From: a virus
Taxonomy: Duplodnaviria; Caudoviricetes
DNA length: 44,222 nucleotides
IMG/VR virus record: IMGVR_UViG_3300027790_000011
Span: 1-44,222 of that record
Direction: 5' to 3' (one strand)
Part shown: positions 26,949 to 39,697 of the stretch, in pieces
Position numbering within the stretch: position 1 is the stretch's first letter
Layout: each line of letters begins with the position of its first letter
Position numbers and translations under genes: made by a program
Notes under the pieces: model-generated
What the model saw: only the letters and a program-made list of their open reading frames with translations
The model's database searches: none
Told to the model about the DNA's origin: nothing

Positions 26949-27267
26949 CTGTAGGCTCGGTAGGGGTGCCTTCGCGGTTTGCCCAGTAGTCCCGATACGC
27001 CCGCCATGCTTGCTCTGTGTAGGTGCGAAGGTCAAGTAGCTCGGAGATCATACAATCTATTTTGTTTAACTGGTCGCTCTCTGTCTCCCCGAAATCATCT
27101 AGTATTGCGCGGCCCCGGCAATCTATAAGTTGTATTGTTACTACTGGTGTATCATCGCGGCTATCTGTTAGATAGCCATACCTCGCTGTGTCCAAGGCCA
27201 CCTCTGTAAGGATAGCTGAGTTAGTCCACGTGTCGAGATGCTTCGCTCGCTGTTTGATATATTTCAT
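26938..27267 (-). CDS. Hypothetical protein
   Basis: GGAGG RBS; overlaps both neighbours. Confidence 0.55.
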   Translation of the reverse strand: MKYIKQRAKHLDTWTNSAILTEVALDTARYGYLTDSRDDTPVVTIQLIDCRGRAILDDFGETESDQLNKIDCMISELLDLRTYTEQAWRAYRDYWANREGTPTEPTDEK

Positions 27268-27674
27268 GCTTCCTCCTGCAATGCTTGTATTTTATCCCGG
27301 TACCGTTGCTTCGCCCGTTCTGTCTTCAGGGTGCGCATCCTTGATTTCAGCTTCCTGATTTGTTTCTCGATCTCAGTCCTGTGATTAGGGTGGATCTTGT
27401 ACCCAGAGTAGTCCCGCTGCACGAACTCGGCCAGGTTCAGCATGAATTCATCAGGCGGGATCTTGCTCCGCCTCGCCCATGCCCTGATCCTGCCCTCGAT
27501 CTGGTTACAGTTTCGATGCAGCACAGCACGGCAGTGACCGCTGGCGTGGTCATGATCAAGCGTGGCTTGCTCCTTAGCGATGTACTGCTTGCACAGCGGG
27601 CAGATATTACTCTGCCTGCGTAGCAAGGTACGCCGATACCGCGGAACTTCCTTCGGCTTAAGACGCTCTGTCAT
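27264..27674 (-). CDS. Recombination endonuclease VII-like nuclease
   Basis: CPLC...LDHDH..GHCRAVLHRNCN..EG. Confidence 0.9.
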   Translation of the reverse strand: MTERLKPKEVPRYRRTLLRRQSNICPLCKQYIAKEQATLDHDHASGHCRAVLHRNCNQIEGRIRAWARRSKIPPDEFMLNLAEFVQRDYSGYKIHPNHRTEIEKQIRKLKSRMRTLKTERAKQRYRDKIQALQEEA

Positions 27675-27683
27675 GCCCCGCCA

Positions 27684-28088
27684 TCACCCACCGGGGGGCA
27701 CGTCAGCCAAAACTGCCCGGTGAACAACAGAGCACTTAGGTATTGTCATATACCCACACCACTGCTCAGGGGCATCAACAGCGCTGTTCGCTGGGGAGAG
27801 GTGAGGGACGAGCACTATCACGTCCTGGTCTTCTTTCACTACCCACCCAACCGAAAAGCATTGGTGTGGGTGTAGCTTTATTGTACTAGTCTCAGCCCAA
27901 TCAGCGCCAACCCCGTAAATATCTTTCCACTCTAGGTACACAAGTTGGTAATGACTGACGGGTGATATCCCACCCCGTCTGTAAGCTTTTTCAACCATTT
28001 CATCAATGTAGGTTGCCGTTGGTTCTGTCATTGCTAATCGCCCCCCGCTTTCAGTGGCAACTTTCTTGCGTTGCGTTATTTCATTCAT
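27684..28088 (-). CDS. Hypothetical protein
   Basis: VYLEWKD...CFSVGWVV...IPKCSV phage-type motif. Confidence 0.55.
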   Translation of the reverse strand: MNEITQRKKVATESGGRLAMTEPTATYIDEMVEKAYRRGGISPVSHYQLVYLEWKDIYGVGADWAETSTIKLHPHQCFSVGWVVKEDQDVIVLVPHLSPANSAVDAPEQWCGYMTIPKCSVVHRAVLADVPPGG

Positions 28089-28112
28089 TTCCGCTCTCCG
28101 TTTACCGCGTGG

Positions 28113-28451
28113 TTAGAGGTATTCAAACTCGATCCTGTTCACAGTCGCGTCAGGATTAACTTTGTAGTGGTCAACCAGCATTTGAATGAACTCTGCGGGC
28201 GTCCATTCTGGAAATCCTTCTTTAATCACATCGTCCTGAGTAATTGCGTTCAGCGGTTCCGCCGTAGTGGAAACAATACGCAACATCGCCAGCGGTTTGA
28301 TCTTCTCGCCCTTTTTTAGGCCCATTGCCTTCTCGACCCCGCGCACTTTGTCACCGGGTTTGAGGAACCACCAACCAAAGCGGCGCGTTACAGTCTTGGT
28401 CTGCGCTCTAATCTGGTCAGTGGTCATTGCAAAACTCATGTTTCGTGCCAT
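28113..28451 (-). CDS. ASCH/PUA-like domain protein (cassette ORF); in frame with the upstream ssb fragment
   Basis: NMSFAMT..QI...TKTVTRR.GW..LKPGD...EGF...RIEFEY; own GAGG RBS before ATG 28451. Confidence 0.75.
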
Positions 28452-28479
28452 ACGTACCTCTAACAAGAAAATTAAGGCG

Positions 28480-28697
28480 GAGCGCAAATACTCGCCCGCA
28501 ATCTCCGCCAGGCGATTAAAAAATATCACCCGGTGCCACTCAGTGCGCTCCTGCGGCTGCCCGGTTTGCTTATCCTTCCAGGTCTCGCTGGTCGCTACCG
28601 AGATATTTGCCACCTGGCCACCGCTCGGCATAAAACGAGTCTCAGGGTCCTGCCCCAGATTGCCGATCAAAATGACTTTGTTGATTCCCCTGGCCAT
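28480..28697 (-). pseudogene. ssb: 5' fragment (about 72 codons) of a bacterial-type ssb
   Basis: [19 protein letters not shown]...TEWHRV...AEIAGEYLR, after which SSB similarity ends abruptly. Confidence 0.85.
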
Positions 28698-28722
28698 ATT
28701 GTTTACCTGTTTATTTTTCCAG

Positions 28723-28780
28723 CACTAACCGGATGCGTTGCGGCAGACCGCTAACGCGGCTGCCGAACTTATTGTTAGGC
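28723..28780 (+). other. attC site 1
   Basis: CACTAAC...GTT(G)CGGCAG(A)CCGC-TAAC-GCGGCTGCCGAAC-TTATT-GTTAGGC. Confidence 0.8.
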
Positions 28781-29512
28781 CGCACTAATCCGGACTTGTG
28801 CAATCTTGAAATATTGCTCATCGAGTTCTATCCCAATGAATGAGCGGTTAAGGTTCTTGCAAGCCACGCCAGTAGTTCCACTGCCCATTGTGAAATCTAA
28901 AACCGTCTCGCCTTCGTTGGTGTAGGTTTTGATCAGGTACTCCATTAGGGCTACCGGCTTCTGAGTTGGGTGATAGCCTCTTCCTTCGCGGCAGTTAAAT
29001 CGTATCTGGCTAGTCGGGTACTTTTCATTATAAGTCTTGCCTGCCTCACCAAAAGCCTTGGATGCCTCGGTTACAGCTATCGGAATCGCCTTGCTTTGCT
29101 TGTTCCCGCCTTTCTTTATGGCCTTGTCGCGCTTTACCATTTGAGGGAAGTAATTTGGTTGCTTACCTGTTTTTGTAAAGACCAAAACATCTTCGTGGTC
29201 TTTCAGTGGCTGACGTTTTGCTTGAACGAAGTTTGCGGCAAAGCACTTATCCCAAACCCAACAAAAGGCGAATCCGCCCATATTGCTAGATATCAGTGTC
29301 GTTGTGAACGGCTGGCTTGCAGTCATCACAATAGCCCCATTAGGCTTAATCACCCGTTTCAACTGCTCCCACATTGGCTCTAACGGGATAATCGAATCCC
29401 ACTTGCAGGCCGTTGTCCCATAAGGCGGATCAGCAAGCACCATGTCCACGGCCCCGGCTTCAATGCCTTGAAGTAGCTCAAGGCAATCGCCACGCATTAG
29501 TCGAATCGTCAT
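28775..29512 (-). CDS. DNA N6-adenine/N4-cytosine methyltransferase (beta class), cassette ORF
   Basis: DPPY catalytic motif precedes HPTQKP and LDFTMGSGTT. Confidence 0.92.
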   Translation of the reverse strand: MTIRLMRGDCLELLQGIEAGAVDMVLADPPYGTTACKWDSIIPLEPMWEQLKRVIKPNGAIVMTASQPFTTTLISSNMGGFAFCWVWDKCFAANFVQAKRQPLKDHEDVLVFTKTGKQPNYFPQMVKRDKAIKKGGNKQSKAIPIAVTEASKAFGEAGKTYNEKYPTSQIRFNCREGRGYHPTQKPVALMEYLIKTYTNEGETVLDFTMGSGTTGVACKNLNRSFIGIELDEQYFKIAQVRISAA

Positions 29513-29537
29513 GTATTCATAGTCCTGTGCTGGTGCG

Positions 29538-29597
29538 GCCTAACAAGGCAATCTAGCGGACAACAAAAAGCGTTGCCGCTAATCGCTGGCGTTATGC
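29538..29597 (+). other. attC site 2
   Basis: GCCTAAC-AAGGC-AAT(C)TAGCGG(A)CAAC..GTTGCCGCTAAT..GTTATGC. Confidence 0.88.
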
Positions 29598-29906
29598 CTC
29601 TAGTGGCTCAAATAGAACCTCATCCAACTCCCACCAAGCCGCAATCTCCACCATGCCAAACTCCCCCCTCTGTTCTGGGTTATATGTGGCTAGGTATAAA
29701 TAATCCCCAGCCCCCTTAGAGAACGCATCTACGTAAGTTTCATCAGGGTTTTCTAAAAAATCATTTACAATGTCATCTAGTGTGTCAGCAGTAAAATGCC
29801 CGTCTACACCACAAATGAACGCTTCATCTTCACCGTTATAAAAAAACTGAACGTAGTTCTTGCCGCGCTTAGTGGGCATAACAATGCTATCAATCGGATT
29901 GCTCAT
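29592..29906 (-). CDS. Hypothetical acidic protein, cassette ORF
   Basis: GAGGAGG RBS and ATG lie inside attC3; stop at the TTA of the core site. Confidence 0.7.
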   Translation of the reverse strand: MSNPIDSIVMPTKRGKNYVQFFYNGEDEAFICGVDGHFTADTLDDIVNDFLENPDETYVDAFSKGAGDYLYLATYNPEQRGEFGMVEIAAWWELDEVLFEPLEA

Positions 29907-29950
29907 TCGTCGTTCCTCCTCATTCTCAACCGCTTATAGCGGGGTTATAC
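29876..29950 (+). other. attC site 3
   Basis: GCATAAC-AATGC-TAT(C)AATCGG(A)TTG...CAACCGCTTATAGC-GGG-GTTATAC. Confidence 0.85.
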
Positions 29951-30160
29951 GTCAACTTCGTAATCCGGCTCATCAACAAAATATAGGCATCTAGGTAACA
30001 GTGTTATTGCATCTAGCTTGCTATCTATCTGAAACATATTATTTCCACGCACAATAATACCATCGAGCTGTGTCACTAGCCGATCGCCTTCTTGCCACAC
30101 AAAAACCGGCAGCTTGTCCCATTGCTTTGTATGCAGCGTTATCGCCTCGCTCTTTTTCAT
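29945..30160 (-). CDS. Hypothetical protein, cassette ORF (start revised to MKKSE)
   Basis: GGAG RBS 8 nt upstream; stop at the core site. Confidence 0.6.
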   Translation of the reverse strand: MKKSEAITLHTKQWDKLPVFVWQEGDRLVTQLDGIIVRGNNMFQIDSKLDAITLLPRCLYFVDEPDYEVDV

Positions 30161-30185
30161 ATTCATCACTCCGTAGTTAGTAGCC

Positions 30186-30247
30186 GTATAACAAGGCATT
30201 CGTTTGGACGAGTAAAGAGCACTCGCCACACAATTTAATCGTTAGGC
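30186..30247 (+). other. attC site 4
   Basis: GTATAAC-AAGGC-ATT(C)GTTTGG(A)CGAGT..ACTCGCCACACAAT..GTTAGGC. Confidence 0.85.
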
Positions 30248-30520
30248 GTCTGCTTTTTCCAGCTCGAACGCGGTGCATGTTGGCTGACCGTCGGAATCGA
30301 TAATCCACTCTCTTGGATATTCTGCATCATTGGTATCGAACGCCATCGTTAGGCCAATAATTTCACAACCACCAGAATATGTTTTTGGGTCTAAATTGTC
30401 GTGTTTACACTTAGAGCAAAATGCTGACATGAAAATTTCGCCCTCAGTACCATTGCTTGGGCGATACGATTCTCCGGCGCGTTCTTTCATTCTTTCTGCC
30501 ATGCTGTCTACATGGATCAT
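30242..30520 (-). CDS. Cys-containing hypothetical protein, cassette ORF
   Basis: YRPSNGTEG..F...FCSKC...C.I...EW....GQPTCTAF; GGAG RBS. Confidence 0.7.
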   Translation of the reverse strand: MIHVDSMAERMKERAGESYRPSNGTEGEIFMSAFCSKCKHDNLDPKTYSGGCEIIGLTMAFDTNDAEYPREWIIDSDGQPTCTAFELEKADA

Positions 30521-30533
30521 CTCAATCTCCCGC

Positions 30534-30590
30534 GCCTAACAAGGCGCTCAATCCGACGCACTACGTGCGCGGCTTAGCTTTGGGTTATAC
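30534..30590 (+). other. attC site 5 (aadA-like)
   Basis: GCCTAAC-AAGGC-GCT(C)AATCCG(A)CGCAC-TAC-GTGCGCGGCTTAGC-TTTGG-GTTATAC. Confidence 0.92.
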
Positions 30591-31148
30591 CCACTGCTCA
30601 ACTATGGCAGCAGCCACGCCATCAAAAGTTTTGCTACGGTCGCGCTTGCGTGTTTCGCTTGGAGGCATCTTCCATATCCTTTGCTCTCGCCCCTCTACAA
30701 CGTTGGTGGGCTTCAACGGCTCCAGGTTGTGCAGCGCAAATCCTGTTTTCTTTGTTTCACCGTGCCCATGTTCCCACGGCTGAATGTAATGCACGTTCGG
30801 CAGCTCTTTGAAAATCACACTTACTGGGTTTTCTAATGCAACCTTGTTCGCGTGTTTCTTCGCCAGTTCCCAAAGCTGTTTAGTCCATTCAACTTGGGTC
30901 AACCGCTTGTCGTGCATCGGCATCCCCTCCCCGTACCACCGATTACCACTAACAGCCATCGCGGTGCAGTCTGGGTGCAGAATGATTAAATCCCAATACC
31001 GCGTAGGTATCACTTCCATAATATCCTGCTGGTAATGCCAGTCAGGGTTGCCGCGTGTAGGTTGCAGGTCACAGCTATAAGCCACAAAACCCGCATTCCT
31101 GAAAGCCTTTGTTATCGTCTGGCTTTCTTCGCATCCTACTAAAATCAT
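30585..31148 (-). CDS. DNA cytosine methyltransferase-like protein, cassette ORF (start revised to MILVG)
   Basis: LVGCEES, SCDL, HPDCT (motif IV-like), ENP (motif VI) and RSKTF motifs; GGAGG RBS. Confidence 0.7.
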   Translation of the reverse strand: MILVGCEESQTITKAFRNAGFVAYSCDLQPTRGNPDWHYQQDIMEVIPTRYWDLIILHPDCTAMAVSGNRWYGEGMPMHDKRLTQVEWTKQLWELAKKHANKVALENPVSVIFKELPNVHYIQPWEHGHGETKKTGFALHNLEPLKPTNVVEGREQRIWKMPPSETRKRDRSKTFDGVAAAIVEQWV

Positions 31149-31172
31149 AATCCCCTCCAATGTGCAAAGTGG

Positions 31173-31225
31173 GTATAACAAAGCAATCAACGGGACGTTC
31201 CGCCCGTTATCGCGTGTGGTTAGCT
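31173..31225 (+). other. attC site 6
   Basis: GTATAAC-AAAGC-AAT(C)AACGGG(A)CG-TTC-CGCCCGTTAT..GTTAGCT. Confidence 0.85.
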
Positions 31226-31495
31226 GCCGTATTCACCGTCGTGGTAATACTGCTGAAAATAACGTTTTGCTTCGCGTTCAGAGCCCTCCAACGTCGGAGC
31301 GTCAACGCTCCACAGCCCCTTTTTGCACTTAATGGAAACCCGGTCACCTTCATCAATGGTCGTAGTATTTTCTGCATATGCCTGATCAACCCTGCTTAGT
31401 GTCATGGCTCGGTGTTGTGCCTCTTTATCAGCCGCTAGATACTCCCGCTCTTGTATATCTAATGAAGCTTTTGAAATCTTAGCTAACCGTCTCAT
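31220..31495 (-). CDS. Hypothetical protein, cassette-derived ORF
   Basis: Bounded by GTTAGCT (31219) and AGCTAAC (31481); ATGA overlap with the exonuclease stop. Confidence 0.6.
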   Translation of the reverse strand: MRRLAKISKASLDIQEREYLAADKEAQHRAMTLSRVDQAYAENTTTIDEGDRVSIKCKKGLWSVDAPTLEGSEREAKRYFQQYYHDGEYGS

Positions 31496-32370
31496 TGCTC
31501 ACTCCCCGCCATAAACTCTGCGTAGGTTTTGTTGTACGTCTGCTCAAGGGGCTTACGCAGCATCCACAGCAGCATAGCATTCCTCTCGAACACATCTTCC
31601 ATACCGTTCTCTTTGTATACTTGTAGTACTTTTTGTTTACACTCTTTCCCAGATAACCCATGCAGTAGTTTTTCAGCGGTAACATCGCCGACCCTCGGCA
31701 CTCCGGGTATGTCATCTGCTGAGTCCCCGGTTAACATCTGTTTCCAGAAGCTGTTCAATCCCTCCTCCTCGGTGATATACCACACCTCTCCCTTGCTCCA
31801 ACTGTACCTCCACCCAGGTACCATGTCCAGGTCTTTATCAATCGTACAGATAATGCTGGGTGTACCACGTTTAGCTGCGTTACATTGCTCAATAGCTACC
31901 GCATCATCGGCCTCTATCTCGTGGTGTACCACCGCTCCCCAGTGCTTAATTAAGTAATCTTCAACAGTTGGCAAATGGTACGGTTTAGGCGTATCCATGC
32001 GGCTGTGTTTATATTCAGGGTACACACCGAACCGGAAACACTTACCACGTGTTAAGTGTACTTGGTATGATGTAGCACCAGACGCCTTCAGTATACCTTC
32101 CAGCATCCTCTTTACTGTGAATCGACAATAAGTATCCGGCTCAGGTACCACTAACTCGGTGTACTCCCCCGGAAGTTGCTCTAGAACGGCTTTCTTTTGG
32201 AACACACCTGGAACCACATTGGTTACACCATTAGACAGCGCTGTCACCTGCATCCCCTGCTTAACTTTCTTAATACTGAACTGCTCGCCGTCCTCGTCCT
32301 GGTACACAGTCTTCTGGCAAGCGAAGCCGCAGGCGTACTTCAGTATGTCGGCATCAATCTGGGCGTGCAT
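31492..32370 (-). CDS. 5'-3' exonuclease (T7 gp6 / RNase H-like; start revised to MHAQIDAD)
   Basis: IDAD, YKHSR, EADD, IDKDL and GDSADDIPGV..VG..TA motifs. Confidence 0.9.
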   Translation of the reverse strand: MHAQIDADILKYACGFACQKTVYQDEDGEQFSIKKVKQGMQVTALSNGVTNVVPGVFQKKAVLEQLPGEYTELVVPEPDTYCRFTVKRMLEGILKASGATSYQVHLTRGKCFRFGVYPEYKHSRMDTPKPYHLPTVEDYLIKHWGAVVHHEIEADDAVAIEQCNAAKRGTPSIICTIDKDLDMVPGWRYSWSKGEVWYITEEEGLNSFWKQMLTGDSADDIPGVPRVGDVTAEKLLHGLSGKECKQKVLQVYKENGMEDVFERNAMLLWMLRKPLEQTYNKTYAEFMAGSEQ

Positions 32371-32557
32371 TATAACCCCGTACGCTTTCACCTCTGAACC
32401 CGCAGTTAGGTGCGCGAAGGTCGGCGAGACTGATAGGTAGGCGCATCTCGTTAGCCCTGTCGCGCTCCTCGTCCGTGAGGAACCTGTAACAGTCACGGTT
32501 AAAACACTCACCGCGAAAGCTGCGTAAGCAGAAAGCGCGGTCTTTGTAGCAAATCAT
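32354..32557 (-). CDS. Small Cys-rich hypothetical protein
   Basis: MICYKDRAFC...C...C.R. Confidence 0.55.
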   Translation of the reverse strand: MICYKDRAFCLRSFRGECFNRDCYRFLTDEERDRANEMRLPISLADLRAPNCGFRGESVRGYNARPD

Positions 32558-32561
32558 GTCA

Positions 32562-33089
32562 TCACCACGGAATGTCGTCGTCAAACTCAGGCGCGGGGCT
32601 TGATTGCGCTGGCGTAGCGGCTGGTGCTGGTGCAGCTTGCGGCTGCGGCATAGGCTGCGGCATAGGCTGCGGCATAGGCTGTGCCGCTGGTTGTGCTGTT
32701 TTACTGGCAGTGTAGTTCGCCACTACAGCTTCAGATCGCTCAGTGATTCGTTTAACTAACTCGAACAACACATCAAGGTCTTTCCCTTCCTCGCCAAGGA
32801 TGGTTGCGGCTACTAATATGTTATGCCCGATAATAGGGCCATACTTGTCAACAGGGTCTTTTTTGTAGCCACCCCGCCTACCGCCTGAGCTGCCGCTGTA
32901 CGACTGCCCTGGCGTGATCTGTAATTGTTCAGCGTACAAGCGCCCGTCATTGGCTTGGGTAGCCACAAATGTTACTGAATCGCCCCTCTTGGGGCACTGG
33001 CTACCTTCTGGGATGTTGTACCACTGCTCATTTATTTTAAATCCTGAGCCGTTGCGGTTAGCGGCCTGTACCTTACCTGTTACATTCAT
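32562..33089 (-). CDS. Putative phage single-stranded DNA-binding protein
   Basis: OB-like N-terminus, (QPMP)3 linker, acidic EFDDDIPW tail; between polymerase and exonuclease. Confidence 0.65.
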   Translation of the reverse strand: MNVTGKVQAANRNGSGFKINEQWYNIPEGSQCPKRGDSVTFVATQANDGRLYAEQLQITPGQSYSGSSGGRRGGYKKDPVDKYGPIIGHNILVAATILGEEGKDLDVLFELVKRITERSEAVVANYTASKTAQPAAQPMPQPMPQPMPQPQAAPAPAATPAQSSPAPEFDDDIPW

Positions 33090-38619: not shown

Positions 38620-38667
38620 ATCTGTCTCCAGTTAAAGAACGCAACATTGCGGCAGCCGAGCTTGGTG

Positions 38668-39003
38668 TTAGGGTGCAAAGTAATACCGTTTTTGCACCGC
38701 TCTTAAAATCTGTCGGTCTATCGGCAGCCAATCTATGTACGGATAGCTGTAATGCCATTTGTGCCAGTCTTCCCATTCGTCACTATCAATGTCAGGCTCG
38801 TTTTCGCAATCAATATCAATCTCGCTTGCTATCCAGTCGCCGTTATCCTCCTGTTCACAAGCGTTGACGCCGGTAATTAGCAACTGTCCGCCACAAATAG
38901 GGCACCGAGGATTCTTCAGCTTCAACGGCAGCTTGTCTTCTGGCCAAGGCACCCTAACAAGGGTTTCAACCGGATTCGTCATTCCGCTATTCGTTTCACT
39001 CAT
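38668..39003 (-). CDS. Zn-ribbon-like hypothetical protein, cassette ORF
   Basis: CPICGGQL motif; stop at the GTTA core site; start inside the attC. Confidence 0.65.
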   Translation of the reverse strand: MSETNSGMTNPVETLVRVPWPEDKLPLKLKNPRCPICGGQLLITGVNACEQEDNGDWIASEIDIDCENEPDIDSDEWEDWHKWHYSYPYIDWLPIDRQILRAVQKRYYFAP

Positions 39004-39184
39004 TGCTCCATTCCTCTCCGGTTAAAGCCGGGCTGGCTGTGTAGCCTATCAAAGCACCCGGCGGCAGCTCTGCTTTTTTCTCGGCAGCTTGCACGCAAGG
39101 GCAAGAGGTAACCCGCTTCCGATGGGCGGTGAGGCCGTCGAGTGAGTAGGTTAGGGTGTAGTCGTAGAGTCTTTGCTGTTGCAT
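38996..39184 (-). CDS. Hypothetical protein (paralogue of 41721-41912)
   Basis: RLYDYTLTYS...CPCVQAA...IGYTASP. Confidence 0.6.
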   Translation of the reverse strand: MQQQRLYDYTLTYSLDGLTAHRKRVTSCPCVQAAEKKAELPPGALIGYTASPALTGEEWSNE

Positions 39185-39202
39185 TTTTGGTTCTCCATAT
39201 AG

Positions 39203-39253
39203 CTATAACATAGCGTTGTATCGTAAGCGCGACCGATGAACTTAGTGTTATCT
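39203..39253 (+). other. Short attC-like site
   Basis: CTATAAC-ATAGC-GTT(G)TATCG...CGATGAAC-TTAGT-GTTATCT. Confidence 0.65.
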
Positions 39254-39256
39254 GCC

Positions 39257-39697
39257 TTATTCTTCATCACCAAAATCTTCATCAGGCCAACCGCAATCTT
39301 CGCAATACGGGCCACCTTCTCTAGGGATTTTTAGCCCTGTAGGGCTTTCACACTGTGGGCAAAACCCTGATCTAATCGCGAACTGAATCGCCCACTCATC
39401 ATTCGGTAGCGCTTTTGCTATTGCCTTGCCAGCTTCGTACCACTCCCATCCATCAATCGCCGGTAAAGTTTCAGCGCCAACGTAATCACGAGTAAGGCAA
39501 ATGGATTTTAAGGCGGTAGATAACAAGGCGGTCGGGCAGACTGCTTGCCTCGGTGTTTCATCGTTGTCTTTAAGTTCGTCATTTTCAGTGATTCCGCCCA
39601 TAATATTATCCTCCACTGGGGCTGGCTCATCATCGCAAATACAAGCCATGCCTTTTCTTTCGCCTTGGTCACAGATTCCACATTCACCAAAAAGCAT
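39257..39697 (-). CDS. Hypothetical protein with C-terminal Zn ribbon, cassette-derived; alternative start at 39601
   Basis: CPQC...CEDCG; GGAGG before MGGITEN. Confidence 0.55.
   Translation of the reverse strand: MLFGECGICDQGERKGMACICDDEPAPVEDNIMGGITENDELKDNDETPRQAVCPTALLSTALKSICLTRDYVGAETLPAIDGWEWYEAGKAIAKALPNDEWAIQFAIRSGFCPQCESPTGLKIPREGGPYCEDCGWPDEDFGDEE

Follow-up and report, generated by a model that had tools for sequence, protein, structure and literature searches.

An array of integron-type gene cassettes lies between the endonuclease VII and exonuclease genes of a tailed phage (Duplodnaviria; Caudoviricetes; IMG/VR record IMGVR_UViG_3300027790_000011), whose 44,222-bp genome record is complete with direct terminal repeats and was analysed over its full length (hereafter the window). 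We consider it probable (about 0.8) that this is an integrase-less cluster of cassettes whose genes are inverted relative to their attC recombination sites, that the units are likely cut at G/TT by an integron integrase (IntI) supplied in trans, and that the whole block likely moved at a 9-nt direct repeat. The evidence comes from complementarity specific to the two ends of each unit, from attC sites recognised by a model of bacterial sites, from a gene polarity reversed unit by unit, and from metagenomes in which the neighbours of nearly identical units change at G/TT. Clusters of attC sites are already known from phages; the unusual part of this locus is its layout, an inverted, integrase-less and variable array.

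Complementary ends of the cassette units

The array and the features that bound it are listed below (+, top strand; −, bottom strand; end match, length of the complementary run joining the two ends of a unit; ORF, open reading frame).

27264-27674, endonuclease VII gene, left neighbour of the array
27676..27684, 9-nt direct repeat, left copy; bounds a 3828-bp block (joint 27675->31504 in metagenome run X2)
27684..28088, −, 134-aa ORF, function not assigned; within the block, left of the first G/TT
28112..28464, −, unit 1, ASCH-like gene (28113-28451); 10-nt end match; TAA in the core
28458..28488, +, left half of a broken attC; 28482-28488 is a 7-nt microhomology with ssb
28482..28729, −, ssb cassette remnant (5' part of ssb); Pfam SSB residues 5-75, E 2.6e-21
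28723..28780, +, attC, 58 nt; 18.9 bits; bottom-strand fold z −3.6
28774..29544, −, unit 2, N6/N4 DNA methyltransferase (28775-29512); 12-nt end match; PF01555, E 5e-38
29538..29597, +, attC, 60 nt; 44.3 bits
29591..29882, −, unit 3, 104-aa ORF (29592-29906); 8-nt end match
29876..29950, +, attC, 75 nt; 26.9 bits
29944..30192, −, unit 4, small ORF, function not assigned; 8-nt end match
30186..30247, +, attC, 62 nt; 42.3 bits
30241..30540, −, unit 5, 92-aa phage protein (phrog_13210); 8-nt end match
30534..30590, +, attC, 57 nt; 43.9 bits
30584..31179, −, unit 6, phage DNA-methyltransferase-like gene (phrog_757; ~30585-31148); 12-nt end match
31173..31225, +, attC, 53 nt, with a 7-nt right spacer; 26.1 bits
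31219..31487, −, unit 7, small phage ORF; 7-nt end match; no attC after it
31492-32511, exonuclease gene, right neighbour of the array
31504..31512, 9-nt direct repeat, right copy, inside the 3' end of the exonuclease gene

A preliminary description of this DNA had proposed that the core opening each unit is complementary to the core closing the same unit, as a sign of past circular intermediates. All seven end pairs that it listed are present, as perfect complementary runs of 10, 12, 8, 8, 8, 12 and 7 nt for units 1 to 7. The opening core pairs with the closing core of its own unit and not with the core of the linear site; in each of the five linear sites found at the end of a complete unit, the R''–R' match spans just 4–5 nt. 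A permutation of the end pairs had been set beforehand as the refuting check, and the true pairing was unique among 5040 permutations when total run length was scored (with the 7-nt cores alone, 4 of 5040 tie). Four matched bases come free, since a TAA stop followed by C reads GTTA on the opposite strand, and the remainder of each match is particular to its unit. The predicted extension of the stems on circularisation was likewise borne out: in 5/5 junctions the bottom strand forms 7/7 R-box pairs, with the energy lowered by 1.0–3.2 kcal/mol. These circular-junction folds reach z −1.5 to −4.6 against 200 shuffles, and with longer flanks the circular form is more stable in four of the five.

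Taken alone, matched ends are a textbook, generic property of cassettes, because bacterial control units have them too: in 22 regions around intI, the ends match over at least 7 nt in 25 of 38 units, compared with 6 of 38 within the linear site, as expected from crossover in the R box (Nivina et al.). Outside the array, 9 of 185 GTTA sites have a matching 7-mer 100–800 nt downstream, which weakens the 7-nt pair of unit 7. What stands of the proposed circles is that the units behaved as cassettes when they were last cut; the claim does not extend to circles formed inside this phage, where the block is bounded by the 9-nt direct repeat.

Identity of the attC sites

A heuristic attC scan (score of at least 13), tuned with the array sites in view, returned exactly six sites and none in five shuffles. 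Because of this tuning, a covariance model was trained on 32 attC sites that adjoin integron integrases in bacteria and that had been picked by the same heuristic. Its top six matches were the six intact array sites, at 18.9–44.3 bits and all on the + strand, with the site at 28723 the least typical (18.9 bits). An R'' ending in AAC and an R' starting with GTT are present in all six, and the L''/L' boxes with their extrahelical base place the top strand on + by both the heuristic and the covariance model. Heuristic counts given here are lower bounds (sites in the published phages P12002L and MW202573 were missed). Neither scan recognised an attC right arm in the left flank before 28112. A consensus scan for the cassette promoter (Pc) found no promoter-like site on the + strand left of 28112, and attI has no general consensus. 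Intrinsic terminators in the region number 7 against 6.0 ± 2.2 expected, and among the attC sites only that at 31173 scores as one.

Neither a PF00589 search nor a PHROG scan of 65 ORFs found a tyrosine recombinase in the complete genome. With six intact sites and no integrase, the array belongs with the clusters of attC sites lacking an integrase (CALINs), defined by at least two attC sites; the intI gene that marks a complete integron is absent. Units 1–6 run from G/TT to G/TT with complementary ends, as cassettes do, and the canonical arrangement, with an ORF on the attC top strand ending near R'', is not found.

The preliminary description had also regarded all seven units as genuine mobilised cassettes rather than terminators or chance hairpins. 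We retain this for units 1–6, on the basis of the attC model, the terminator background and the changes of neighbour at G/TT, and not for unit 7, which has no attC. At five other loci with homologues of unit 7 there is no attC either; one homologue, P0001, begins at an internal Met inside the unit, which favours cassette status. Unit 7 is possibly a cassette remnant and possibly a chance match.

Two observations concern attC sites beyond the array. The types at 29876-29950 and 28723-28780 have a high summed contig depth in metagenome runs X2 or X4/X5, which suggests that they recur many times on other cassettes there. At three other loci (L003, L097 and L166), attC sites are 120–130 nt long, and their loops appear to contain the start of the inverted gene.

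Orientation of the cassette genes

The array ORFs all lie on the bottom (−) strand, antisense to attC polarity and with a TAA stop inside R', and they are co-directional with the phage replication genes; this inversion was absent from the preliminary description. The polarity is reversed within the unit in 5/5 complete array units, and only 5 of the 38 bacterial control units are inverted (32 are sense). Reverse-oriented ORFs are occasional in bacterial cassettes. Three of the cassette proteins led to 181 viral loci (the best 80 of 130, plus 56 and 45 loci), in which 36 of 41 attC matches are antisense to the query gene, with 1–3 matches per shuffle. Antisense matches fall in 16 loci and others in 5, some of these loci being near-duplicates. 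Of the 17 units in eight extended phage regions, which were chosen for their antisense sites, 15 are inverted, the units within an array not being independent.

We also rechecked published phages: TJE1 is canonical, H101 (PH101) mixed, and P12002L and MW202573 inverted. The inverted P12002L unit (L268:29237-30011) has a 9-nt end match. The inverted layout of MW202573 spans L270:2069-3738, and the site named attC2 in P12002L may represent the R' end of an opposite-polarity site. Top-strand insertion at R'' was considered as a cause of the inversion and rejected by reasoning, as it flips gene and site together. We found no description of inverted phage cassettes in the accessible literature, a coverage that excludes subscription papers and preprint supplements.

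Changed neighbours in other metagenomes

Six of 24 metagenome runs were compared (X1–X6), as assembled contigs. X4 and X5 contain identical pieces at identical depths and were counted once (X4/X5). X1 may come from the source sample, as may L151, which is identical over 10183/10183 bases, and neither was counted as independent. The backbone is not covered in X4, a gap that was given no weight. In these data, unit 1 starts at 28112 in both X2 and X6, where it follows two different attC arms (X2 joint 28773->28112, with five shared letters). For unit 3, the X2 record starts at 29591 and finishes in a variant attC arm that leads to a different next core; unit 4 starts at 29944, preceded by different sequence in X2 and by another attC arm in X4/X5. 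Records also end at a core, at 29591 in X2 and at 30584 in X4/X5 and X6. The copies beside other neighbours at G/TT are 98–100% identical. With units 1, 3 and 6, the right-hand attC moves along, as bottom-strand geometry predicts; the unit-6 attC is carried up to 31214 in X2, X4 and X6, with divergence after that position. Since X3 repeats two window junctions (29591 and 30584) without differences, misassembly is argued against.

Forms lacking some or all of the array were found as well. One X2 contig joins 27675 to 31504, so that 3828 bp are missing at the 9-nt repeat, which has only two copies in the genome; without the block, the exonuclease gene has its normal end and overlaps the start of endonuclease VII. 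X2 also contains the phage backbone, mostly at ≥95% identity. In X6, the left flank runs directly into unit 7 on one contig, with the joint in the core region (28105->31213; short side 27 letters). The cassettes appear to be mobile, because their neighbours change exactly at G/TT and one relative is without the block.

A fusion across a broken attC and the cargo genes

The list in the preliminary description missed an eighth unit, the ssb remnant at 28482-28729, which has lost its opening end, and, contrary to that list, the attC after unit 1 is broken at 28488. An ORF of 194 aa (28113-28697, −) joins the 5' part of ssb in frame to unit 1 across this broken attC, and the ASCH part of the fusion retains its own likely ribosome-binding site. 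Judging from the assembled sequences, a deletion at the 7-nt microhomology fused the two, because X4/X5 and X6 run from 28488 into an attC right arm and the ssb pieces in X2 and X4 begin at 28482.

The cargo families of the array are phage families. The ASCH assignment of unit 1 is based on Atlas feature matches of 0.97–0.98, with 12–28% of members carrying ASCH. Unit 3 has a likely ribosome-binding site and start codon within its own attC, and the viral scan gave no matches for it. Relatives of unit 5 occur at 45 viral loci. A homologue of unit 6 (79%; L139:430-1164) is flanked by two antisense attC sites on a phage-like contig; the unit there has an 8-nt end match, and its open frame begins inside one attC and runs through the other. 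For the 134-aa ORF left of the first G/TT, there was no match in PHROG, Pfam, NCBIfam or PADLOC and none in the viral scan; one homologue of 93 aa has 61% identity.

Genome setting

Structural genes lie on the + strand (1–22 kb) and replication genes on the − strand. The portal protein is ~35% identical to portals of Pseudomonas podoviruses such as tf, and the best matches of endonuclease VII are in Zobellviridae. No close relative was found in the annotated phage collection, and Rfam gave no match. In the viral scan, the exonuclease reached two distant loci, both without attC, and a plasmid search with one attC returned four matches, which is at chance level.

Two further regions show repeats or cassette-like features. 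At 32641-32681, three 12-nt tandem copies lie in the Ala/Gln/Pro-rich tail encoded by the gene at 32562-33089, and one relative in X2 carries a 6-nt insertion close to these repeats. In the early region, 38667-39569 is probably a second cluster of inverted cassettes, now decayed. There, the unit at 38667-38958 has a 10-nt end match, and its ORF has its stop in the core and its start within a site that resembles attC but has an altered R' (38952-39038); a second site, 39203-39253, opens a unit with a 9/10-nt match at 39524. Covariance-model E-values in this region are 0.03–2.3, and the folds are no better than shuffles.

Alternative explanations

If the sites were terminators or chance hairpins, the matched ends would follow from TAA stops and a shared consensus. 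The four free bases, the one attC that scores as a terminator and the possible chance match of unit 7 are in keeping with this idea, which we regard as extremely improbable: matching continues beyond the free bases unit by unit, the bacterial attC model finds a single polarity, and neighbours change at G/TT. For units 1–6, the permutation, the G/TT changes and the attC model rule it out. Very unlikely, if less remote, is the capture of an ordinary bacterial integron fragment whose genes are inverted merely because the array lies backwards. The attC sites do resemble bacterial ones, the TJE1 array is canonical, and on a bacterial contig (L141:2682-3047) a unit-6 homologue (76%) directly follows a possible attC in canonical orientation, found by the heuristic only (12.5). 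That site was not detected by the covariance model, however, and flipping an array turns genes and sites together, whereas here polarity is reversed per unit (5/5) in an array of phage-family cargo, against a sense majority (32/38) in bacteria. The L141 homologue itself stands beside an integrase and transposase-like gene pair.

A more serious alternative, which we nonetheless judge somewhat unlikely, accepts the cassettes as genuine and holds that they are now inert, having been built elsewhere, brought in as a block via the 9-nt microhomology and changed in this phage only by microhomology recombination. It agrees with our preferred reading on origin and differs solely on present activity. 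The 9-nt repeat with its empty allele, the deletion that joined unit 1 to ssb at a 7-nt microhomology, the divergence of the last attC at 31214 rather than at G/TT, the lack of an integrase in the genome and the decayed cluster at 38667-39569 all fit it. What it explains less well is the persistence of 8–12-nt matches at five of the six complete ends and the occurrence, next to different neighbours at G/TT, of copies with 98–100% identity. These features point to an integrase recently active in some part of the pool.

Several observations weigh against trans-acting IntI and a mobile inverted array. At the X2 joint 28773->28112, one side comprises only 38 letters of attC, of a type that is multi-copy in X2. 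In X4/X5, unit 4 diverges 4 nt past R'', which implies that attC bodies can also be swapped in other ways. Each empty form comes from a single contig, with sides of 34 and 27 letters, and related Zobellviridae have 2–5 genes between exonuclease and endonuclease VII, which leaves gain and loss of the 3.8-kb block both feasible. No cassette circles were seen in the assembled contigs, and none of ten phage records with inverted sites (five of them ≥90% complete) has an integron integrase. Unit 7 is without attC, and TJE1 and H101 indicate that inversion is not universal among phages. In the accessible text of Qi et al. (2023, PMC9892861), the P12002L site attC1, of the inverted type, was not recombined by IntI1.

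Proposed mechanism

According to the preferred reading, IntI supplied in trans would excise and insert units via the bottom strand, with the enzyme provided by a host integron or by a phage encoding IntI. A phage-like contig within a bacterial metagenome-assembled genome (MAG) appears to be of the latter kind (L238; G011:C74, 4331-6151): it carries a full IntI (457 bits; cut-off 265) directly downstream of two inverted cassette ORFs and adjoining two attC sites, together with holin, endolysin and HNH genes. The contig with the unit-6 homologue flanked by antisense sites (L139) is from the same MAG. Seeded perhaps at a GWT-type site, in this phage or a donor, the array may then have moved as a block, which would have entered or left the phage by recombination at the 9-nt repeat.

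Inversion would align promoterless genes with the phage operon, and we infer expression by read-through from the exonuclease operon. It would also place the recombining strand on the coding strand, which would be the lagging-strand template if replication follows transcription; according to the accessible part of a review, that position favours attC folding. The methyltransferase genes likely have an anti-restriction role. We are evenly divided on a wider proposal, a phage cassette economy in which inverted phage-gene cassettes (methyltransferases, ASCH, ssb) would still be shuffled at G/TT among unrelated phages by host or phage IntI, their genes read from phage operons and their recombining strand exposed, with phage operons perhaps making new cassettes.

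Integrons are now viewed as host stores of anti-phage genes. Mirror-image phage cassettes with likely anti-restriction genes, if true, would mean that the same machinery serves phage and host. An inverted cassette is in effect a canonical cassette with its gene flipped between matched ends, and may thus offer a handle on how cassettes originate.

Comparison with known systems

In its anatomy the array is like bacterial ones as described in the accessible text of Nivina et al. (2016, PMC5027507), with R''/L''/L'/R' boxes, a bottom-strand hairpin, crossover at G/TT and matched ends. Unlike bacterial integrons, it is without intI and without a recognisable attI or Pc, and its ORFs lie on the bottom strand with the stop in R' and not in R''. 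At its left end (28112) the array has a GTT without a recognisable attC, which recalls the insertion of cassettes by IntI at GWT sites outside att sites (attG) and the single attC sites lacking an integrase (SALINs), reported by Loot et al. (bioRxiv 10.1101/2022.09.11.507474). This is a possible route for seeding an array, shown there for bacterial chromosomes with canonical cassettes, unlike the phage array.

The closest parallels are the 17 phage CALINs of Qi et al. (2023, PMC9892861; accessible text), found in virulent phages including TJE1, PH101, P12002L and ctTUS972. They share with this locus an attC cluster without an integrase in a phage and methyltransferase cargo, for which those authors proposed a counter-restriction role; IntI1 recombined five of the six phage attC sites that they tested. 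The methyltransferase of unit 2 is 48% identical to the P12002L cassette methyltransferase. P12002L is called 'divergent' there, and in the portion accessible the inversion of ORFs relative to attC polarity is not described beyond this. To these systems the present locus contributes population evidence: changes of neighbour at G/TT, an empty allele and a fusion through a broken attC.

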